The translations under genes and the position numbers were made by a program. A stretch of 64,000 nucleotides of DNA from Candidatus Thorarchaeota archaeon SMTZ1-45 (GTDB lineage: Archaea > Asgardarchaeota > Thorarchaeia > Thorarchaeales > Thorarchaeaceae). The notes below the pieces were generated by a model. The model searched no databases and was not told the DNA's origin. It saw nothing but the letters and a program-made list of their open reading frames with translations. This document shows, piece after piece, positions 11,104 through 20,923 of the stretch (position 1 is its first letter; every line of letters begins with the position of its first letter). Where the stretch lies: contig LRSL01000109.1 in the NCBI GenBank assembly GCA_001563335.1, positions 32,001 to 96,000 of the forward strand, given 5' to 3'.

Positions 11104-13153
11104 TCATGTCTCACCAAGAGTTTTTTGGACTAACTCTTCTATCAGCCCCTCCTTTGGAATAAATGGAAGAGAAATATGACCTTTGTTTCCTAATCTCTTA
11201 TTCCATTCAATCGTTGTTTCAATAGCATGATTATTTCTTGCCCAAGCACGACGTGCAACACCACCCATTACATCCCAATCGAGAGCTAAACGAATAATAG
11301 TATCAACACGTTCAGTGCCATCTAGAACCAGACCAAATCCACTATTGATTGCTTTTCCAGTACCCACACCACCACCGTTTGACAAAACACAGAGTGTCAT
11401 TCCACGAGCTACATTACCAGCCCAACATTGGTGCGCCATGTCACTCATAACATTGCTACCATCACGAATGTTTGCTGTTTCTCTGAATGGCGAGTCTGTC
11501 CCACCAGTATCATGGTGGTCACGTCCCAACATGATAGGGCCAACCCTTTTTTCACGAACCATCTTGTTGAAAGCTAGAGCAATGTCAACTCGACCAAGAG
11601 CATCTGCATACAAAATTCGTGCTTGAGATCCAACGACAAGTGCATTCTTCTCAGCATCTCGAATCCAAATGTAATTATCTCGGTCTTGCCCACGACGCTC
11701 AGGACTGATGCGTGACATTGCCATCTTGTCTGTTGCTGCAAGGTCTTCATGGCTTCCGCTTAGACAGACCCATCGGAACGGACCATAACCATAGTCAAAG
11801 CAGATTGGTCCCATGATGTCTTCAACATATGAAGGGAAGATGAAACCATCTGACTCGTTTTCACCATTCTTTGCAATTCTCCTGACACCAGCATCAAAAA
11901 CAGCCTTCATGAAGCTGTTACCATAGTCCCAGAAGTGGGACCCCCGTTTTGTCATAATCTCAATAAGTTCAAACTGTTTGCGGAGGGATTTGTCAACCAT
12001 CTCGTTGAACTTTTTTCGGTCTGACCGGAGGAGCTCACGTCCCTCTTCAAAGGTAACTCCCTGAGGTGTATATCCACCACCATATACGTCATGACATGAG
12101 GTCTGATCTGATGCAAGCTCAATCTTAATGTCATTTTGAACAACATAGTCCCAAAGATCAACAACATTCCCATAGTAACCTATTGAAACAGATTTACCAT
12201 TGGAACGATGATCTTCAACCCAATGGAAAATCTCATCAAGATTCGAAGAGTATCTGCTTAGCCAACCTTGTTCACTACGTGTTTCAATACGGCTTTTATC
12301 AACCTCAGCAATAATTCCAATTCCACCAGCAATCTCGATTGCCTTAGCCTGAGCGCCACTCATTCCGCCAAGTCCTGATGTCAAGAAGACTTTCCCACTT
12401 AGGTCACCATCATCAGGGATTCCTAGGTATAATCGTCCAGCATTCAAGAGTGTGATGTAGGTCCCATGGACAATCCCTTGAGGTCCTATATACATCCAAC
12501 CACCAGCTGTCATCTGACCATAGTTTGCAACACCCATGGCTGCAGCTTGATGAAATCCATCAAGCGTGTCAAACATTCCTACCATGAGACCATTGGTAGT
12601 GATTGCTCGAGGCGCATTCTTGTGGGAAGGGAACAGACCAATAGGATGTCCTGAATTGACGACAAGTGTTTGCTCATCTGTCATTACTTCAAGATACTTC
12701 TTGATTAATTGATACTGCATCCAGTTCTGGCACACCTGACCACTCTCTCCGGTAAGTTTAGGAAATCTAACAATTTACTCCGTAAGTGACCAGTTCATAT
12801 GGATACAAGGCTACATCAAAGTCCAGATTGTTGTCAATCATCAATTGTATTGCTCTTGCTTCAAGAATACCTTTGTACTCAGTGATTGGCTTGGCTTTTA
12901 TCTCACCAGGGGGTCTGTATCTGTATCCATAAATTCTTCCTCTGGATAACAGCTCAGCCAAAAATTCTGGAGCTAGGTGATTGTGCAGTTCTGAGGGCAC
13001 ATATCGAAGAGCGTTTTTGATTGAAATGATTGTGTCATGTTTATTGAGGTTATATCCTCTATCTGGAGCTCGTCTAATTCTAGGATCAAAAACTGGTTCT
13101 GGAGGAAGCTCTCCAGACAGTTTAATATGCATTGCTTTTGAAGGATCAGTCAT
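11104..13153 (-). CDS. hutU: Urocanate hydratase (long type), split into 13153-12778 and 12746-11104 by a 31-nt insertion; 672 aa if joined
   Basis: The N-part ends MIDNNLDFDVALYPYELVTYG. The C-part begins ESGQVCQNWMQY and has YGQMTAGGWMYIGPQGIVHGT, GLGGMSGAQ and GRDHHD. The exons total 376+1643 = 2019 nt in frame. Confidence 0.92.
12747..12777 (-). other. 31-nt insertion in hutU; putative BHB/BHL-type mRNA intron
   Basis: Contains in-frame TAG and TAA and is flanked by a CGGAG direct repeat. A 10-bp exon-exon helix, 3-nt bulge and central helix place the cuts so that the frame is restored. Confidence 0.6.
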
Positions 13154-13214: not shown

Positions 13215-16200
13215 TCATGAATTTGTTTTGTATTTCCTTGCAATCCTACCAATTGTCGCAATACTCCTTGAGATTTTGTGTTCTCTCCAGAGTTGTAGAC
13301 TAATTTCCCCGTATGTCAATCCTTTCTGTCTAAGCCTCGATATTTCTGAGATTTCAAAGGAGGTTACTCGTTTCCTCTTTGGTCTTGCGTCAATCATTTC
13401 ACATAGTTCAGATAGATTTTCAAGACGACTAGTAGCATTCTTGAAAAGAGGAAGATTATGTAAATTGCGAATAGATGCATGATGTACTATTTCAATCCCT
13501 TTTTTCTGTAACAGTGATTCGATATTGAAAGATTCCAGGATTTTTTTGATATGCCGCTTATTAGCTAAAGATCCAATTCCAACACGTTGACTAATTAATG
13601 AAGCATAACCATCACCATCTGCTATCCCTTGAAGAAATGGAATCTGAAAGTCCTGGGGGATTCTATGAATCCAATCAGCTTTTAGAGTGCTGTAGGTTTT
13701 TTTATCATTCGGACCTAGATTGAATATCACCTCTCTCATCCAAACAAAAAAAGGGCTGTCAATGCAAAGTTCACAAATTGAATCAAGTTCTCTTTCCAAA
13801 TACGAAATTCTTGAAGGACTCAGCATTGAGAATGAATTAGAAACATCTTCAAGGATTTTTTTCGACCATTCATATTTCTGACTGAGTAAAATCCTTAATG
13901 AATAAGAAGTCTTACTTGTAGGTTGGATGTACCCATCAGCAAGAATCATACCAAGAATATACATGAATTCTTGAAAAGGTAGTTTCAATTGCTTACAAAC
14001 TTCCAGTATTGATGAAAAATCAATATTCTTGATTGGAACTTCGATATAATCATAGTATACATTTTCTTCTACACGCAGTGGTAGCCATTTCCAGCCATTG
14101 CGAGGAGGATTTGTTGGAATCTCCTTAAGTATCTGCAAACCTCGGGGTAGGATTCCTTTAGTCCACGATAATATGGCGGTTTCGTGGACTTCAAGTAAAC
14201 TTGCTATGATATTTAATGGGTATCCTGTTTCAAACAAGTCTAAGAATCTGAAGTAGGCTTTTGTGTACTTGGTCATATCCTCAATGTTTTTCCATTGGTT
14301 CAGATATGGTTCAATATAGAGGTTCCTTCTTAAAGTGGAGAGATGATCAAATGAGTTTGCAAACAAAGAAGTTCTAAGCTTGTTTGCCTTGATTTTGTTT
14401 TTGATTGCTTGTTCAATATAGACTAGCAGTTGAGGTCTATTTGCTTCAAGTGTCCATCGCCTTGCCTTGGTTGGAGCTATTCCGATTCTGTCAGAGATTG
14501 TTAGAAGTTCGCTGTTCCTGATATTTTGTCTGCCCTTGAAATTTTCTTTCAATGTGAAGTATAGAATAGCATCAGATTTAAGCGACTTAAAATTGCTCAA
14601 AGTTGTTAAACCTGGATACTCTTTGAGCTTGACATTCAGTTGCTGCTGTGATATGACTCCGATATTTTCTAGAGATTCATAGAGTCTTATCGGTGAATGT
14701 TCTGTCTGGATTTTACTCCTTATTGAGTGAGGATTGACAACAATTCGAATGGGCCAAGGAGTAACACCGTCAATAATAGCTTTTGTTCTAGTAGAGCCTA
14801 ATTTCAACTTGCGATCGACATCACATTGTAACATCCCCTTTTCTAATAACTCTAGTATCTGATAGTATAATTCTAGATGTTTCCATTGTTTATCAGCTGT
14901 TGGCCAAGAATCGATTGACTCATCCATTTCTAAGTCTACTAGTTTTTGTTTGATAGTATCAGCATCTTGGAATTTGCCAAGCCGCTTGCGTATGGATTTC
15001 ACTCGAATTTGATTTTGGAGAACATTATTAATCATTCTAAATATAGTAGGATGAGAGTGTAGTTTTTGTGGATTCGATTTCTTAAAATATTTCTTAGCTT
15101 GAGTCATCCATTTAGTATAGGATTTATTCTCTTTTAGTCCTGGAAATTTCTGCTCAACAATTACTTCAAGTTTCCTCAAAGAATCAATTTGTTCATCCCC
15201 GATTTTGGGATAGTTACATGTTTGTACGGGTCCACCTTGAGAGTCAACGAGTTTACGCTTGGACTTCGTTTTTTTGGATTTAGCGTTCAATCTCTCCATG
15301 AGAAACCTTTCAAAAGAACGGCGTATGGATTCACCTACAACCTTTGTCCACTCTCGTTCCACCTCGAGTGCCCACAGTTCTCTAACAAGCTTTGGTGCTG
15401 GACCTTTCTTCATCCCCCTCACAAAAGAACGGGCATCCTTCAGTTTCTGCTTGTAGTCAGAGCTGAGCTTGACAGAGGGATGACGTGCAATGAGTTCCTC
15501 TAGGTCCTCCTCTGATTTTAATCTTGACCTGATAATCTCCTTGAGACGCTCACGCTCCTCCTCTGAGAGTTCACTGAAGAGCTCACGGAATCTTCTCCGG
15601 ATATCCTCCTCTTCAGAGGTCTCCTCATCCTCCCCAAAGAATGACCGGGGCTTGAGGGTCCTGTCGACCACACGTTCTCCTGTCAGAGCCTCAACAATGA
15701 CTCTCTCCTCAGACTCAGATTCCGACTCCTCAAGGCGTTCCACTAACTCTTCTACTCGACTGATGAACTCCTCTGGAATGTCGTCATCAAGTTCACTCTC
15801 AAAGGCCTCTTGTTCGTGAGAGGACTCTTCCTGTTCAATGAATTCAGAGAGCTCAAGCTCAGACATATCAGAATCAATCTCAGGTTCAATGACCTCGTTC
15901 GAGTCTTCAGAGGACTTCTCCACCTCTTGGGCGGCTTTAGCTCCAAGGTCCACGTCGAATTCTTCAACAGAGTCTACATCATCCTCAATTCTGGATTCCT
16001 TGGTGTCTTCATGCCTGAGTTCAGACTGGTCATCATGCTGAGGTTCTATCTTGGAGGACTCAGGCTCAGGTAACTCTGGAGTTTCGTTAGACTCGATTTG
16101 CTGGACTCCTTGGTTCTCTATCTCTTCTACCGGGTTAGAGGACGAGGTTTCCCCGTGCTCGATCTCTGGTGCTTCCTGTCTTGAGATCTTGTTCCTGAAG

Positions 16201-16811
16201 CCATCATCAAGTGATTCCACCTCATCATCAGCTGGCTCATGAGTTTCTGTGTTTTCAAGTTCTTCTTTCTCACACTCAACCTCGGACTGTGTTTCCCCCT
16301 CAGACTCGCTCCTAGTTTCCATTGCATAGACCATTCCAGTGCCTACATCCTCGTAAGACTCACTGGCTTCTGTTGCCTCCGAGGTTACTCCGTCATCACT
16401 TCCTTCTTCCACTTCACTGTCCTTTCTCGAAACCCCCTCCAGCTGATGGCTCAAATCATTGACATATTCGTCATGGAGTTCATCTCGTACTTCGTCAAGG
16501 TCATTCTCCAGATCATCCTCGAAGGACTCCTTAGCCTCCATATCTTTCTCCCGTTGAAGGTCATCGAATTCCTTCGCAGCTACCTCAGCAAGGTCTTCTA
16601 TCTCCTTGATCTTCGATCTGAGCTCATCAAACTCCTTAGCAGCCTCATTGGCTATCCACTCAATCTCCTCCTGACGATCAAAGTCCTCCGCTTCCTCCGT
16701 TGCATCCTTCTCTACCTCATCATGAACCTCTCTACTCTCTGGTTCGTCGGGAGTTTCCTCGCACTCTATCTCTGAATACCAGTCTGCACCGTCTGTTCGT
16801 TCATGCGGCAA
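13215..16811 (-). CDS. Large chimeric protein: acidic low-complexity N-terminus, repeated helical/HTH-like modules, double LAGLIDADG endonuclease domain, C-terminal HTH
   Basis: FMYILGMILADGY and FLQGIADGDGY motifs; C-terminal LRQKGLTYGEIS HTH; start placed at TTG 16811 overlapping the ATPase stop. Confidence 0.8.
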   Translation of the reverse strand: MPHERTDGADWYSEIECEETPDEPESREVHDEVEKDATEEAEDFDRQEEIEWIANEAAKEFDELRSKIKEIEDLAEVAAKEFDDLQREKDMEAKESFEDDLENDLDEVRDELHDEYVNDLSHQLEGVSRKDSEVEEGSDDGVTSEATEASESYEDVGTGMVYAMETRSESEGETQSEVECEKEELENTETHEPADDEVESLDDGFRNKISRQEAPEIEHGETSSSNPVEEIENQGVQQIESNETPELPEPESSKIEPQHDDQSELRHEDTKESRIEDDVDSVEEFDVDLGAKAAQEVEKSSEDSNEVIEPEIDSDMSELELSEFIEQEESSHEQEAFESELDDDIPEEFISRVEELVERLEESESESEERVIVEALTGERVVDRTLKPRSFFGEDEETSEEEDIRRRFRELFSELSEEERERLKEIIRSRLKSEEDLEELIARHPSVKLSSDYKQKLKDARSFVRGMKKGPAPKLVRELWALEVEREWTKVVGESIRRSFERFLMERLNAKSKKTKSKRKLVDSQGGPVQTCNYPKIGDEQIDSLRKLEVIVEQKFPGLKENKSYTKWMTQAKKYFKKSNPQKLHSHPTIFRMINNVLQNQIRVKSIRKRLGKFQDADTIKQKLVDLEMDESIDSWPTADKQWKHLELYYQILELLEKGMLQCDVDRKLKLGSTRTKAIIDGVTPWPIRIVVNPHSIRSKIQTEHSPIRLYESLENIGVISQQQLNVKLKEYPGLTTLSNFKSLKSDAILYFTLKENFKGRQNIRNSELLTISDRIGIAPTKARRWTLEANRPQLLVYIEQAIKNKIKANKLRTSLFANSFDHLSTLRRNLYIEPYLNQWKNIEDMTKYTKAYFRFLDLFETGYPLNIIASLLEVHETAILSWTKGILPRGLQILKEIPTNPPRNGWKWLPLRVEENVYYDYIEVPIKNIDFSSILEVCKQLKLPFQEFMYILGMILADGYIQPTSKTSYSLRILLSQKYEWSKKILEDVSNSFSMLSPSRISYLERELDSICELCIDSPFFVWMREVIFNLGPNDKKTYSTLKADWIHRIPQDFQIPFLQGIADGDGYASLISQRVGIGSLANKRHIKKILESFNIESLLQKKGIEIVHHASIRNLHNLPLFKNATSRLENLSELCEMIDARPKRKRVTSFEISEISRLRQKGLTYGEISLQLWREHKISRSIATIGRIARKYKTNS

Positions 16812-19800
16812 CTTCAGACCCCGAGTTGTTGATTTCCGATTGGACCATATCATGCACAGCGGCCCAAAGTGCATCATTGACTGGAGAGTCCAGAGTTGCC
16901 CTTGCCTCATTCAGTAACAAAATCACTACTTCGGTGATGTCGAAACCATCTCCAGCAATCATTCTGGAGAATGTCGTCAATAGAAGTACGAGTGGCTCAT
17001 AGTTGCCATCCGCAGCCATCTGAGCTAGTGGTTGGTATCTGCTGACAAACTGGTTAGTACACACAATGGATCTCACCTTCTCTTCGAGCTCTCCATCAGG
17101 CTCTACTCCATGATTGTCTGATTGATCTGTACTCTGTAGCTTCTTAATCTCGTCAAGTGCCATTCTCACCGCGGACATCACATCAGATGCTGTTACCTTA
17201 GCATCATGCTTGAATGAGCTGACCCTCCACTCAAGTTCCGAATTGAGCCGTGAGTGATAACGCTCAAGATGGTTGCTTGGCAATTCGCTGAGTGACAGGA
17301 GCAGTTTCAACTCCTCCACTATTTTTCCAAGAAATGACGGATTGAACTCTTTCATCTTTGAGATACACCAGATCAGATGATGAGCATCGAATGATACATG
17401 TGTATCATCTGGTCCTGCGAGCCTCGCAATATTACGAGTGATTAGAGCCCCAAGCCTTGATTTTTTGGTTTCAATGAGAGTCTTCAAGACCTTCTTGAAG
17501 AATGCACTATCCAACATTGTATAGAGTCTGAGTGCTCTAGGAATGTCTATCTTAATGGTTGCTAACCTAAGAGATAGTTCTCCTGATTTCAATGATTTAA
17601 GAGCGTGTGCAGACTTGGTCTGAAAATGAGGGTTCTGTGTGAAGAAAGGGCTCATGTGCTGAATAATCTCCTCATCAGTCACTGGTTTCCCAAGAGCAAG
17701 TTCTGGATGCAACACTACAATGTCATTGACCCGCACCCGCACTGGTCTGCTGATACTGGCAGTTCGAATCACAGCCTCACCGACTGGTAAGGATCCCATC
17801 ATCCGAATCTGGTCCTCGGTACAGTTCATCTGATCGCCGATGAGTTTTCGATCTGATCCCGTACCTCTACCGTGCATGATTATGTTCAGGGCTATTGTGT
17901 ATGCACTGCTTGTGAGTTCTGAGAACCCCGGTGCGATTAGAGTGAAGCCCACTCCTGCACTCCTCGACTCTTTCATAGTGGTGGTGATTGTTTCCACAGC
18001 TGCCTGTTTTGCACCATGCTCCTCATCCACCTTGACCCCAGTTTCAACTTTGAGAATCCTGTGAGACTCCTCAATGACCACGTTATACTTCAGCCCTTTC
18101 TTGTACACCTTCTCAGTCTTCTTCTTTGCCTCAAAGTAGCGAGCCACTCTGGATACGAACCAGAAGACAAAGAACGACTGCTCATCCTTGGATAGTGCAT
18201 ATAGTAGTATAAGACTAGGTTTCTTAGTCAGTTCTTTCATGGTGATACCAGAGGTCGTTCCAAAGACACTGTTGAGTGCACTACTACATAACTTGTTGAA
18301 CCTGATATAGAGTGCTCCCCACACATCCTCGTTTCCTCGTGTACTGTACTGGACCTCCTCCTTGATGAGCGGCAAGGTTTCAAGAAAGTCTGAGAGAACA
18401 ATAGCCAACCCAGGAGTGTTGGTTTCGCGGTCCCAGCCCAATCTCTCGAAGGTCAGTTCGATGACCAGCTCCATATACTCCTTGATGATTCCATGCGCAG
18501 GCATCGCAGCAATGATGATAGCCTTCATGTCATTGATAACTGAGTTGACATGCATGCCCTCACAAAACTCACTGAGAGAGAACCTTACAGGAGTGACAGT
18601 TTCATCACCTGGGGTGAGGACAAGAATGTCCTTCACCTTCCGGAGAAACCGAAGATGGTCCTCATTCTTTGAGAGTAACAGCTTGGTGAAGTTGATCCCC
18701 AGCCGATATAATTCTAGGGTGATGTTCGACTCAGTCACAGTTTTTCCGTTCCCAATGTCGCCGCCAATCACGCTGTGTGATGTCAGATCATTGGTTGGAA
18801 TCACGAAATCATCAGCGGGAGTTCCTGAGTCATCCAAGACCTTCCCAAGTCGGATACCATTAGTCTTGTTTCGTTCCTTCTGATCGCCCCTTCGGGTTGT
18901 GGGATTTGTACGAAATGAAGCATGGTCTGCAACTGAGATACCGAGATCGTTTCGTGCTAAGGAGAAGTAGACACTTGCCTCCTCAAGTGACAGAAGCGTT
19001 GTCCTACCAACTATCTCACCCTCAATCAGTCTGTTGGCTTCTTGAGGACTCTTCTGGGTTTCAATAGAGAGATGGTTCTGGGGATCAGCTGGGATGAGAG
19101 TGCCCCTTAATACTCCCGCTAGCTTCCTTGAGTATTTCTCAGCAATCGCTGCGTCTCGGTCCCAGCAGGTCGCGGAAACCTCAACCTCACACAGATGACT
19201 GTTGCTCAGTCTATCAATCTGTATCTGTAGAGACTCAGCCTTTTTGACAGCCTCCATGTCTGTCCTTGTCTTGGACTCCTGAACCTCACCAGAAAGCAGT
19301 ATTGACCTTGGCTTCGATATGGTCAGCTGTGCCCGTTCACTCTCAGTCTTGTACTGTTTCCCCAGTGACTGGACTGCCCGATTACTAGAGCGTTTTGGAA
19401 TGGCCCAGAACTGCACAATTCCGTTCTGTAGGCCAAGAAGAACCTCCATCATGACAGTGATTGCATCAATCCTCTGTCGTGGGTCGTCCACTGTAAGTGG
19501 TTCACCCAAGAGATATGTCGTCACAGACGTAGCAAATGGACTAATAGTTGGTGCATAAAACCTCGCGTGTACCTTTCGTTTGAAGCCCGAGAGGTTTCCT
19601 TTTACAGTGTCAGCGAGTGTTTCGAGACTCTCCGACAGTTCAGCATCTTTCCTTGCCCAGGTCAGATACAACACACGCATCTTGTTCCTCACACGTTCGT
19701 ACCGGAGCCCCACTGGAAAGTTAGATAGGACCATGACGCGTAGGATGTTGAAGAGAGGTTGATACTTGGACTGATCGGGGTCCTTGTTCAGCAGATGTTC

Positions 19801-20289
19801 TTCTGGGAACTCAGTCAGTTCGACAGCCCCAACCAGACAATCCTTTTTGATCACTCTCTGAGAGATTGCGATTCCAACACTTTGGGGAATGCTTGGGCTT
19901 TCTGGAGGTGATGATGGCACCCTTTGACCATACCACAGCAAGAGTAATGCGGTCACAATTCCAGCAATCATTATGGTTTCAAAGGGGTAGAGGAGTGCGA
20001 TCTGGATGAGAAGCAGGACTCCTCCGACAATGATCGCACCAATTGTGATGACGAATCCACTCAGCCAGAGAATAATTTTGTACTTTGATATCTGTGAAAA
20101 TGCAAGTGTACAAGATCCCAGAAAAAAAATGACACCTGAGAGGAGAAAAGCTTGGAGTTTTAGTTGGGCAGGTCCAAAGGGTACTATCGTTAATAACCAA
20201 AGGCTGATGTATGATGGCAGGAGAGTTGCCATTAAGACTAAACAGAGCTTTGTGATGACTGATCCAGCCCCAGACTTCTCTTCTGACAT
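16801..20289 (-). CDS. Membrane-anchored HerA/FtsK/VirB4-like P-loop ATPase
   Basis: About 4 N-terminal TM helices; Walker A GGDIGNGKT; Walker B YNVVIEESH; ESRSAGVGFTL; LPVGEAVI; GGAGG RBS. Confidence 0.85.
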   Translation of the reverse strand: MSEEKSGAGSVITKLCLVLMATLLPSYISLWLLTIVPFGPAQLKLQAFLLSGVIFFLGSCTLAFSQISKYKIILWLSGFVITIGAIIVGGVLLLIQIALLYPFETIMIAGIVTALLLLWYGQRVPSSPPESPSIPQSVGIAISQRVIKKDCLVGAVELTEFPEEHLLNKDPDQSKYQPLFNILRVMVLSNFPVGLRYERVRNKMRVLYLTWARKDAELSESLETLADTVKGNLSGFKRKVHARFYAPTISPFATSVTTYLLGEPLTVDDPRQRIDAITVMMEVLLGLQNGIVQFWAIPKRSSNRAVQSLGKQYKTESERAQLTISKPRSILLSGEVQESKTRTDMEAVKKAESLQIQIDRLSNSHLCEVEVSATCWDRDAAIAEKYSRKLAGVLRGTLIPADPQNHLSIETQKSPQEANRLIEGEIVGRTTLLSLEEASVYFSLARNDLGISVADHASFRTNPTTRRGDQKERNKTNGIRLGKVLDDSGTPADDFVIPTNDLTSHSVIGGDIGNGKTVTESNITLELYRLGINFTKLLLSKNEDHLRFLRKVKDILVLTPGDETVTPVRFSLSEFCEGMHVNSVINDMKAIIIAAMPAHGIIKEYMELVIELTFERLGWDRETNTPGLAIVLSDFLETLPLIKEEVQYSTRGNEDVWGALYIRFNKLCSSALNSVFGTTSGITMKELTKKPSLILLYALSKDEQSFFVFWFVSRVARYFEAKKKTEKVYKKGLKYNVVIEESHRILKVETGVKVDEEHGAKQAAVETITTTMKESRSAGVGFTLIAPGFSELTSSAYTIALNIIMHGRGTGSDRKLIGDQMNCTEDQIRMMGSLPVGEAVIRTASISRPVRVRVNDIVVLHPELALGKPVTDEEIIQHMSPFFTQNPHFQTKSAHALKSLKSGELSLRLATIKIDIPRALRLYTMLDSAFFKKVLKTLIETKKSRLGALITRNIARLAGPDDTHVSFDAHHLIWCISKMKEFNPSFLGKIVEELKLLLSLSELPSNHLERYHSRLNSELEWRVSSFKHDAKVTASDVMSAVRMALDEIKKLQSTDQSDNHGVEPDGELEEKVRSIVCTNQFVSRYQPLAQMAADGNYEPLVLLLTTFSRMIAGDGFDITEVVILLLNEARATLDSPVNDALWAAVHDMVQSEINNSGSEVAA

Positions 20290-20572
20290 GAATGACCTCC
20301 AACCTAGTTACTTGTACTCGTTTATCATCTCATATTTAGAAGATAGAAGACATTTCAGCGTTCGGTGGAATATAATTAAGGAATTATAGGGAAGAATTGC
20401 TGCTCTATGTGTTTTAGAATCATCCCGATTGCTAAATTTCGATTATGGGGTTTTATTTTATAAGAAAAAGGCTTATTCCGTGTATTTGATATATGCCAAG
20501 GTCCAAAAGTGCATATTAAAGGTCGGTTTTTCACAGTTTTTCATGTGGTTCGAGCATCTGTCATAAAAAAGG

Positions 20573-20815
20573 GTGAGTGAGAGAGCTAGATTGATTAGGT
20601 TTCATGCAGGTGAGTTCCTAGTTGAGGCATACCAGATGGTAGGAATACATGAAACAGGTGACGAACTCCTAGAGATCTTACAGAAGAATGGGCATCATAA
20701 GACAAAGAAACTTGTTAAGGAACTTCAGTGGGGGTTAGATCGTATCCCCTGTTGGGTGCTCGTCTATACTGTATATCAAAAGCTGGATCAGGAGGCAACT
20801 CAGAAGAAAGTTTGA
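20573..20815 (+). pseudogene. Probable truncated element gene whose frame runs into the antisense strand of the hutU remnant
   Basis: The first ~50 codons look protein-like; from ~20720 the frame overlaps the antisense hutU fragment. Confidence 0.35.
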
Positions 20816-20846
20816 TTGTCATTGCCTTGCTAATATCGAAACTCAT
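20715..20846 (-). pseudogene. hutU: Truncated second hutU 5' end (43 codons), probably the original host start
   Basis: MSFDISKAMTIKLSSELPPDPAFDIQYRRAPNRGYDL is 24/34 identical to the copy at 13153; both copies have GGATGTG upstream. Confidence 0.88.
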
Positions 20847-20923
20847 GGAAACACATCCATTGGTTGTATTTTCTATGAGTACTCCCTTCATAAAAGACTC
20901 GCTAGACAAAATGCTGAGGAGTA

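Follow-up and report, generated by a model that had tools for sequence, protein, structure and literature searches.

Organization of the locus

The window analyzed here is the whole 64,000-nucleotide (nt) stretch of contig LRSL01000109.1 (positions 32,001 to 96,000) from Candidatus Thorarchaeota archaeon SMTZ1-45, whose genome assembly comprises 3.5 Mb in 119 contigs. Its minus strand carries, in this order, a gene encoding a large ATPase (P0002), an open reading frame (ORF) encoding a protein with a highly acidic N-terminal half (N-half) and a C-terminal LAGLIDADG nuclease cassette (P0001), and the urocanase gene hutU, which is interrupted by a short insert (Table 1). The initial annotation placed the acidic/nuclease ORF at positions 13215 to 16811. 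The upper end corresponds to an inner TTG start, which is used in the database copy of the protein (P0003; 1198 amino acids [aa]) and lies 33 codons inside a longer ORF; the frame itself remains open as far as 16910, giving P0001 (13215 to 16910) a length of 1231 aa. The TTG start overlaps the stop codon of the ATPase gene at 16801 to 16803. In the ORF list, hutU appears as two pieces, 13153 to 12767 and 12735 to 11104. No tRNA genes were found in the window.

Table 1. Coordinates of the features at the hutU locus and of the inserts at the second hutU site
Feature	Position	Strand	Remarks
Residual native hutU upstream region and first ~38 codons	20724..20850	-	Left edge of the insertion
Spacer 5' of the ATPase gene	20290..20723	-	Part of the inserted block
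ATPase gene (P0002, 1162 aa)	16801..20289	-	Four N-terminal helices, P-loop ATPase core, extra C-terminal helical domain
Acidic N-half, residues 34-537	15300..16811	-	Asp plus Glu, 34-37%; conserved islands; coinherited with the ATPase
Recombination joint and Lys/Arg-rich linker	15233..15299	-	Contains the third-position GC change point (15257) and the identity break
Type A cassette	13215..15232	-	Helix-turn-helix-like helical array, two-motif LAGLIDADG domain, C-terminal helix-turn-helix
LAGLIDADG motif 1, residues 981-995	13926..13970	-	Asp retained
LAGLIDADG motif 2, residues 1091-1103	13602..13640	-	Asp retained
hutU exon 1 (~125 codons), foreign-looking	12778..13153	-	Third-position GC, 0.305
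31-nt bulge-helix-bulge-like mini-insert in hutU	12747..12777	-	Register ambiguous by up to 4 nt; holds the stop of ORF 12767..13153
hutU exon 2, resident type	11104..12746	-	Pfam Urocanase domains
Site 2 inserts in hutU of other genomes	L057:4487-4560, L058:3204-3277, L059:3389-3462
Site 2 inserts in hutU of other genomes	L062:5270-5342, L063:2775-2848, L064:5460-5533

A recombination joint inside the nuclease ORF

The acidic/nuclease ORF was initially described as a chimera with a sharp internal GC switch, and this switch is real. All five GC counts given for 60-nt lines are exact (33, 33, 26, 17, and 17 of 60), and near position 15300 GC content drops to about 0.35 from about 0.49, with 300-nt windows ranging from 0.44 to 0.52 above ~15300 and from 0.33 to 0.38 below it. 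GC content at third codon positions (GC3) is 0.513 over residues 1 to 520 and 0.315 over residues 560 to 1231. The best GC3 change point lies after codon 551 (window position 15257) with a z score of 7.0, compared with a maximum of 4.08 in 300 codon permutations. The N-terminal part is also extremely rich in Glu and Asp, as had been noted, with these residues making up 36.5% of residues 34 to 480 and giving a net charge of -119, compared with +31 for residues 560 to 1231. GC3 is nevertheless higher in the N-half for 12 of the 14 residue types represented at least 12 times in each half, such as Glu (0.62 versus 0.18) and Lys (0.69 versus 0.30), the exceptions being Ile and Arg. Because GC3 shifts within single amino acids, amino acid composition is not the cause of the step, which eliminates the explanation considered in the initial annotation.

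The ATPase gene has a GC3 of 0.50. Across the 1288 ORFs of at least 300 aa in this genome, GC3 averages 0.365 (standard deviation, 0.051); only 0.8% of them reach 0.52, and 10.9% have values of 0.31 or lower. The GC-rich half and the ATPase gene are therefore the atypical part, being within the top 1% of the genome, and the AT-rich half, at about the 11th percentile, is near the low range of the host. In the same genome, contig C69 contains a run of long ORFs (~51 to 122 kb) with GC3 values of 0.21 to 0.26, the 11 lowest in the genome, which could reflect either a foreign island or mis-binning of the contig.

The closest relative of the two-gene pair is found in a sister species (G014:C67), where the ATPase shows 73% and the N-half 65% aa identity and the downstream protein has 1290 aa. 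In 40-residue windows, identity with this relative ranges from 48% to 88% over residues 1 to 536 and falls to 15% to 20% from residue ~537. At the nucleotide level, blastn aligns the two loci at 76.0% identity over 4533 nt, corresponding to window positions 19835 to 15330, and neither flank is similar. The alignment ends at 15330, so the shared unit consists of exactly the ATPase gene and the N-half and terminates in the Lys/Arg-rich linker at the GC step. The GC3 step at ~15257 to 15330 is thus a recombination joint between two units, and the protein is a mosaic of an acidic N-half inherited with the ATPase and a type A cassette of separate history. The linker at this junction is rich in Lys and Arg in most of the fused proteins, including the one in the window (15233 to 15299) and its homologues, and its purine-rich coding sequence could provide microhomology for in-frame cassette swaps.

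An assembly chimera, or a codon usage gradient within one ordinary gene, would produce a step without any biological mosaic. The metagenome-assembled genome is divided into 119 contigs and has an estimated contamination of 5.8%, and a decrease in GC3 toward the 3' end is also seen in four related genes (G014:C67, G014:C8, G001:C4, and the paralogue on the genome's own contig C24), which speaks against the mosaic, although these declines are less sharp and lie further downstream than the step in the window. Contigs of two other sequencing runs, X2 (14999 to 15431) and X3 (15002 to 15430), however, span the step with zero differing letters, so the fusion is not an artefact of the window's assembly. 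Both runs are filed under studies other than that of X1, the likely source run, and X2 and X1 share the same year and habitat and may belong to one campaign. The architecture also recurs in homologues, and identity with the G014 relative breaks at the same coordinate as the step, leaving this explanation hardly credible. Elsewhere, the X2 and X3 contigs match the window up to 14286, 18749, and 11810/11850 and then diverge, as does the X4 contig at 11810; these divergence points are strain variants or further recombination breakpoints, located in the cassette, the ATPase gene, and hutU, respectively.

Exchange of C-terminal halves and association with neighbouring genes

A search with the N-half (residues 34 to 545) retrieved 23 proteins at an E value of ≤1e-5, and together with the loci of the genus, 25 proteins carry the anchor motif, which is located close to the end of the N-half. 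Their C-terminal halves form eight clusters at ≥35% identity, and BLAST detects no similarity between the three superfamilies to which these clusters belong. The first superfamily, consisting of a helix-turn-helix (HTH) array and a LAGLIDADG domain, comprises clusters c2, c3, c6, and c7, with the window's protein in c6. The second is also LAGLIDADG-like (c1, c5, and c8), and the third (c4) has five HTH motifs with HNH-like motifs. In a maximum-likelihood tree of the N-halves, which included 24 rows after the omission of P0172 because of its short N part, the clusters are intermixed, and nine changes of label are needed. Sister N-halves with unrelated cassettes are well supported (P0160/P0161, whose N-halves are nearly identical, 100/100; P0175/P0176, 100/96); the HNH protein P0165 groups with a c3 pair (99/93), and the window's N-half is sister to that of P0157, which has a c2 cassette (94/90). 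At G013:C49, the same ATPase and N-half are followed by five HTH and two HNH-like motifs instead of LAGLIDADG, and at G001:C10, a related ATPase is followed by a protein with seven NUMOD3 motifs and an HNH domain.

The proposal that a constant N-terminal module linked to the ATPase is fused to an exchangeable cassette is therefore borne out by eight types of C-half intermixed on the N-half tree, and full-length colinearity among homologues was not observed, with the C-termini differing even in the nearest relative. The likeness to polymorphic effectors that had been proposed extends to the constant N-half and variable C-half; polymorphic toxin loci have in addition a cognate immunity gene and a secretion system, and neither an immunity gene nor a secretion signal or system was found at the window's module. 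Protection appears instead to come from a mini-intron that lies within the target gene, as described below.

The cassette family itself comprises 239 clusters at an E value of ≤1e-3. The 150 matches listed are proteins of 121 to 1543 aa, in which the matching region almost always reaches the C-terminal end. Free-standing forms are common, one of them being the 583-aa paralogue on contig C24 of the window's genome.

The neighbouring gene and the type of cassette go together, as the initial annotation had suggested might be the case. Flanks were read for type A in the window, G075, G101, and G093, with P0006, P0160, P0012, and P0013 left out, and a type A or type A-like cassette lies directly 5' of hutU in all four of these loci, which represent four genera. 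The G075 cassette (P0005; 41% identical to that of the window) is fused to a different N-half behind an ATPase with 27% identity, and the cassettes of G101 (44% identical to that of the window and 90% identical to P0004) and G093 (35% identical) are free-standing. Type B adjoins the L44e/eIF2α genes in five of six loci (G000:C24, G014:C8, and the metagenome loci L070, L071, and L082; the exception is L083), and its more distant relatives at L023, L072, and L073 occupy the same neighbourhood in the opposite orientation. Type D precedes a carboxyltransferase gene in both of its loci (G014:C67 and G001:C4). A metagenome scan for further type A cassettes yielded 18 loci, none of which was type A, with type B being the best match in most and type D in a few. 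When eight loci of the module were compared, only the ATPase gene and the acidic nuclease gene were conserved between them; no conserved third gene that would be a candidate for immunity was found, and the downstream neighbours are housekeeping genes. L019 (G014:C8) and L023 (G001:C3) have the same flanking genes (65% to 74% identical) with the module inverted between them, and at ~43%, the module proteins of these two loci have diverged much further than the genes around them.

On these grounds, the cassettes look like locus-resident homing endonuclease genes. Since cassettes are also found standing alone at these loci, the block consisting of the ATPase gene and the N-half may be the moving part. 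This block looks foreign by composition, and 76% of its nucleotides are identical to a copy at another locus in the sister species; the cassette and hutU exon 1 look foreign by sequence and host-like by composition. The presence of type A at hutU behind two families of ATPase and N-half, as well as alone, suggests that ATPase blocks have joined resident nucleases repeatedly.

Insertion into hutU and a foreign-looking tract ending at the mini-insert

In related genomes, hutU is one frame of ~680 aa, and a gene encoding an iron-sulfur (FeS) protein lies ~0.9 to 2 kb away in most of them. The corresponding distance in the window is 8.6 kb. At the far end of the enlarged gap, positions 20724 to 20850 align with the 5' end of hutU and the region upstream of it in G008, G002, and G010, and the adjoining spacer (20290 to 20723) shows no homology to the hutU-FeS intergenic region of relatives. 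The 8-kb block is thus an insertion relative to the other genomes of the genus, and no terminal direct or inverted repeats of note were found for it. The native hutU promoter, which was stranded by the insertion, is now directed into the ATPase gene, which has the same orientation. This promoter may therefore drive transcription of the module, with hutU itself being reached by read-through. The hutU-FeS gap is also enlarged (2.9 to 5.4 kb) in G022:C8 (L042), G021:C39 (L043), and G043:C61 (L045), where the additional DNA was matched by neither the nuclease nor the ATPase queries; the region could be a hot spot for insertions in general.

The foreign-looking tract extends beyond the inserted genes. 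Exon 1 of hutU shows only 57% to 68% nucleotide identity to six relatives of the genus, which are ~80% alike over the same stretch, whereas downstream of the mini-insert, the identity between the window and the relatives equals that among the relatives (0.77 to 0.88). Starting at ~15300, the AT-rich tract therefore takes in the cassette and exon 1 and ends at the hutU interruption. In agreement with this boundary, the X4 contig follows the window as far as 12735, beyond which it continues as an uninterrupted hutU. A gene conversion tract extending from the intron site across the exon as far as the nuclease gene would leave behind both the divergence of exon 1 and the break in the X4 contig. 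At the protein level, nearly all of the full-length matches to exon 1 in the class are 65% to 79% identical.

Probable bulge-helix-bulge mini-introns at two sites in hutU

The 31-nt insert that splits hutU contains a stop and is present in the X2 and X3 contigs. When it is removed, a 2019-nt frame results, with only the terminal stop and a conserved junction (..TYGESGQ..). Inserts of 31 to 32 nt are found at the same codon (site 1) in 5 of 22 hutU loci, belonging to three genera, and although their sequences have diverged, the hairpin is preserved by compensatory changes. A second site, after hutU codon ~202, carries inserts of 29 to 30 nt with an in-frame TAG, TGA, or TAA in 6 of the 22 loci, all from six other Thorarchaeota genomes (Table 1). 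The remaining 11 loci lack an insert at either site, and the two inserts never occur together. Both sites come after the sequence TAYGG.

The inserts of both sites conform to the layout of the bulge-helix-bulge (BHB) motif, defined, in the text of PMC7714728 used here, as a 4-nt helix between two 3-nt bulges, which lie on opposite strands and are bordered by further helices. At site 2, the arrangement of helix, 3-nt bulge, 4-bp helix, 3-nt bulge, and helix has 94.7% of its cells paired, compared with 34% to 42% when the partners are slid. Seven pairs, including one in the central helix, show compensatory changes, and covariation is 0.487, compared with 0.248 for shuffled alignments (reached in 0 of 500). 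At site 1, the same layout is paired in 82.9% of cells, compared with 22% to 43% when slid. A register in which the central helix follows the 5' bulge did not fit, whereas a register with the last 4 nt of exon 1 as the central helix fits both sites. The minimum free energy fold of the window's insert by itself has a z score of +0.98, indicating no stable structure, and the BHB layout is seen only by comparison. Because of an ACTTAC(C)GGAG repeat, two other origins were considered for the insert, a repair scar and a mini-transposon that had duplicated its target; both were dropped because inserts occur at the same site with compensatory hairpin changes in three genera. The interruption of hutU is therefore a BHB mini-intron by structure, and judging from the alignments, it is probably removed by splicing. 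The EndA domain (PF01974) scores above the cutoff twice in the window's genome, and one of the two genes is on contig C69.

In the portion of PMC7714728 available to us, cbf5 is given as the sole archaeal mRNA with a BHB intron as of 2020, besides that paper's own 5' untranslated region (UTR) case. The hutU insert shares its 4-bp helix and two 3-nt bulges with the BHB introns of Crenarchaeota cbf5 and the HVO_1309 5' UTR, as far as these are described in the parts of PMC7714728 and PMC2738675 consulted, and like BHB mRNA introns, it lies within a protein-coding transcript, and its removal restores the frame. It differs from cbf5 and HVO_1309 in its occurrence in an Asgard phylum and in another gene, at two alternative sites with a patchy distribution and an adjacent homing-type nuclease, and it is known from DNA. 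A literature search that did not cover supplementary files found nothing on BHB introns in hutU or in Asgard mRNAs.

The cassette as a predicted LAGLIDADG nuclease

The two LAGLIDADG motifs with retained acidic residues and the HTH-like modules that had been assigned to the AT-rich half are both present (Table 1), the latter as a helical array and a C-terminal HTH. All 15 of the aligned sequences retain the Asp residue of each motif, and Pfam LAGLIDADG_3 matches residues 1088 to 1150 (E value, 3e-6). The predicted structure of residues 831 to 1231 has a predicted local distance difference test score (pLDDT) of 86.4, and its top Foldseek matches are I-Tsp061I (an archaeal, intron-encoded enzyme), PI-PfuI, I-SceI, and I-DmoI. 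Searches at the sequence level were less informative: the cassette gave no match below an E value of 0.2 in the PDB, P0001 gave no meaningful match in NCBIfam, and PHROGs returned a weak endonuclease match (E value, 0.012). By its motifs, modelled fold, and putative metal-binding Asp residues, the cassette belongs to the single-chain, two-motif LAGLIDADG type, which is defined by an alpha-beta-beta-alpha-beta-beta-alpha fold with both LAGLIDADG helices on a single chain, and is predicted to cleave DNA. Like I-Tsp061I, I-DmoI, and PI-PfuI, it has one chain with two motifs and both Asp residues, with template modeling (TM) scores to the target of 0.63 to 0.66 for I-DmoI and I-Tsp061I and with PI-PfuI likewise being a best fold match, and its sequence identity to the archaeal LAGLIDADG enzymes is 15% to 18%. 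Those enzymes, of ~180 to 200 aa, have their coding sequences within rRNA introns or inteins. The cassette, in contrast, lies outside the intron, and its protein carries an additional HTH-like array of ~400 aa, a C-terminal HTH, and a 500-aa acidic N-half.

Structures of WhiA rank third and eighth in the same fold search, and the gene lies directly 5' of hutU on the same strand, which would suit a domesticated DNA-binding regulator of hutU that, like WhiA, combines a LAGLIDADG scaffold with a C-terminal HTH and does not cut DNA. In WhiA, the motif Asp residues have been lost, whereas those of the cassette are invariant. A regulator would also leave the insertion, the foreign exon 1, and the remnant hutU 5' end unexplained, and members of the same family adjoin unrelated genes; such a role is very unlikely.

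The ATPase partner

The structural model of P0002 (pLDDT, 68.7) has four N-terminal helices (residues 8 to 121), which would span the membrane according to the model, and an extra helical domain at the C terminus (residues 900 to 1162). The Walker A residues (G..GK; G510, G515, and K516) are invariant. In Foldseek searches, TrwK/VirB4 of the R388 type IV system ranked first (~890 columns; E value, 2e-15; TM score, 0.23 to 0.32), with HerA close behind and further matches to SIR2-HerA, DUF4297-HerA, DndH, and TrwB; the putative likeness to VirB4 (TrwK) and HerA includes both the ATPase core fold and the N-terminal domain fold. Sequence searches returned weak matches to HerA, to CedD (a "DNA-translocating ATPase" in NCBIfam), and to mad8, and PADLOC matched part of P0002 to mad8 (E value, 1.1e-7) and HerA (E value, 7e-6) but did not match P0001. 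Pfam gave no match for P0002, and DUF87 matches its relative in G075.

The ATPase is found in 16 of the 41 genomes searched, all of one genus, and is multicopy and fast evolving. Subfamilies that align only to residues ~1 to 890 accompany other N-halves, and at G001:C4 (L038:7580-8368), only the last 262 aa of the ATPase are left, directly 5' of an intact acidic nuclease gene. The C-terminal domain of the ATPase may thus be the contact for the N-half. A complex prediction for ATPase residues 900 to 1162 and N-half residues 34 to 545 scored 0.16, where the mark is 0.32, and this counts neither way. At G014:C8 (L019:3210-6715), the ATPase gene is decaying, being broken into ORFs of 460 aa and 658 aa.

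Two other roles could be imagined for an ATPase of this kind. The first is a DNA transfer machine in which the VirB4-like ATPase moves DNA through the membrane and the fused site-specific nuclease acts as a relaxase that initiates transfer by a cut at a selected chromosomal position, with cassette swaps changing the origin of transfer. TrwK/VirB4 as the best structural match, the additional matches to TrwB and CedD, the four N-terminal membrane helices, and the overlap of the two genes, which suggests translational coupling, are all compatible with such a machine. Only the two genes are conserved among the eight loci, however, and no other type IV secretion system genes (VirB3/6/8-like, pilin, coupling protein, or relaxase) were seen there; in addition, the TM scores are low, the quality of the model is moderate, and HerA matches nearly as well. 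This possibility is regarded as unlikely. The second is a defence or conflict system in which a HerA-type hexameric ATPase scaffolds interchangeable nuclease effectors diversified by an arms race, comparable to SIR2-HerA and DUF4297-HerA, with the acidic half inhibiting the nuclease until a trigger is received. The structural matches to these complexes and to DndH, the weak PADLOC matches, and the patchy, multicopy, and fast-evolving nature of the module, which occupies conserved positions with diverged content, agree with this picture, and the HerA-nuclease pairs (NurA-HerA, SIR2-HerA, and DUF4297-HerA) share with the window an ATPase of the ring family and an adjacent nuclease gene. Several features are at odds with it: the cassettes are homing-type nucleases with long sites and HTH/NUMOD arrays, they occur free-standing without the ATPase at the same loci (G101, G093, and G000:C24), no PADLOC model passes strongly, and the cassette type tracks the chromosomal neighbour, which is not expected of a defence effector. 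A defence function is accordingly rather improbable. The window also departs from VirB4 and HerA systems in the extra helical domain at residues 900 to 1162 and in a partner nuclease that is modular and, to judge from sequence comparisons, probably site specific.

Proposed homing of a nuclease cassette together with a mini-intron

A homing endonuclease cassette that cooperates with a mini-intron ("collaborative homing") and has become fused to an ATPase-linked module is the explanation that we consider probable. The type A cassette would be a hutU-specific homing endonuclease gene that belongs with exon 1 and the 31-nt mini-intron. Its product would cut intron-less hutU alleles at or near the intron site, and repair from an element-bearing genome would transfer to the cut allele the nuclease gene together with exon 1 and the intron, as well as the ATPase block where it is fused to the nuclease. 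The mini-intron would then protect the new host allele from the nuclease, and its removal from the mRNA by the tRNA-splicing endonuclease would keep hutU functional. The ATPase and N-half block, which is seen in in-frame fusions with different resident cassettes at different loci, would be a promiscuous partner of these cassettes, to which it may contribute DNA handling, transfer, or control of the nuclease.

The distribution of nucleases and introns agrees with this model, in that 4 of the 11 intron-bearing loci, and 0 of the 11 without an intron, have a nuclease of the cassette family next to hutU. This contrast is only indicative because the loci are kin and not independent. The more distant nuclease of G093 accompanies a site 2 intron, and in G015 and G099, the intron is kept without a nuclease. 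At G099:C64 (L055:363-1629), 1.27 kb with a TnpB/IS605-like zinc-finger/RuvC fragment replaces the hutU remnant and nuclease of the congener G101.

Other observations, like the kinship of the loci, weigh against collaborative homing. Seven of the 11 intron-bearing hutU loci have no nearby nuclease, and no intron is visible in the genes neighbouring types B and D. At site 1, the central helix is mismatched in three of the four distinct sequences, and the covariation is weak, being matched by 57 of 500 shuffles. The insert at this site may be passed by ribosomal bypass instead of splicing, as a hop from GGA to a downstream GGA or GGC would yield the same protein in three of the four distinct sequences, or hutU may be split or dead. 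No donor of exon 1 was found in 87 genomes of the class, the best match being 79% identical, and with no close match, fast local divergence is an alternative to import. As the GC3 of the AT-rich half is host-like, the step could mean that the ATPase block, and not the cassette, is the newcomer. Finally, any role of the ATPase is one that we infer.

The proposed process resembles known homing systems of phages. Collaborative homing was described for the free-standing endonuclease F-CphI and an ORF-less group I intron in psbA of cyanophage S-PM2, according to the section of PMC6083498 that cites Zeng, Bonocora, and Shub (2009). In both cases, as far as that account goes, the nuclease gene lies beside and not inside the intron-bearing gene, and intron-less alleles lack the nuclease; by analogy, the intron in the window would split the nuclease site, protect the host, and spread with the nuclease. 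The hutU system differs from the one outlined there in having a BHB mini-intron of ~31 nt and not a group I ribozyme, a LAGLIDADG and not an Endo VII-like nuclease, and a cellular Asgard host and not a phage, as well as a nuclease that can be fused to an ATPase-linked half and whose cleavage activity is putative. In T4, the HNH homing endonuclease MobA is associated with a 50-nt bypass insert in gene 60, and the insert protects the host gene from the nuclease, which is often lost, as stated in the portion of bioRxiv 10.1101/2022.08.31.505936 that cites Bonocora et al. (2011). That element, as presented there, likewise splits a host gene and provides the downstream part with a new N-terminal piece, behind which comes a short hairpin insert; in some relatives, the nuclease has been lost and the insert persists, as in G015 and G099. 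By the same account, the gene 60 insert is bypassed by ribosomes, whereas the layout in the window fits an RNA-splicing motif, even though bypass is possible at site 1, and the nuclease family and the domain of the host differ.

A bolder extension of collaborative homing is that the VirB4-like motor delivers or takes up DNA and the nuclease cut forces this DNA into the recipient chromosome ("transfer-coupled homing"), with the acidic half as an adaptor that tethers the nuclease to the motor and hops between resident endonuclease genes, thereby changing the target, and with the whole kit spreading spliceable BHB mini-introns to protein-coding genes. This version is doubtful; if true, it would be a self-promoting gene drive kit with a motor and a homing endonuclease, which have never been seen together, in the archaea closest to eukaryotes.

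A full-text literature search, which included a paper on Asgard mobile elements (PMC8813620), found no description of homing cassettes fused to an ATPase-linked acidic module. The recurrent in-frame fusion of such cassettes to a VirB4/HerA-linked acidic module may bear on how DNA is cut and moved in archaea without relaxases. Because the cassette type predicts the neighbouring gene, the family offers a natural series of nucleases with long sites and readable targets, in which "retargeting" takes place by domain swap. In Thorarchaeota, hutU carries putative BHB mini-introns supported by covariation (weakly at site 1) at two sites in the coding region, where previously only cbf5 had been reported, going by the text of PMC7714728 used here. 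If the proposed link to the nuclease is true, mobile introns of this kind in Asgard protein-coding genes would bear on the spread of introns before eukaryotes.

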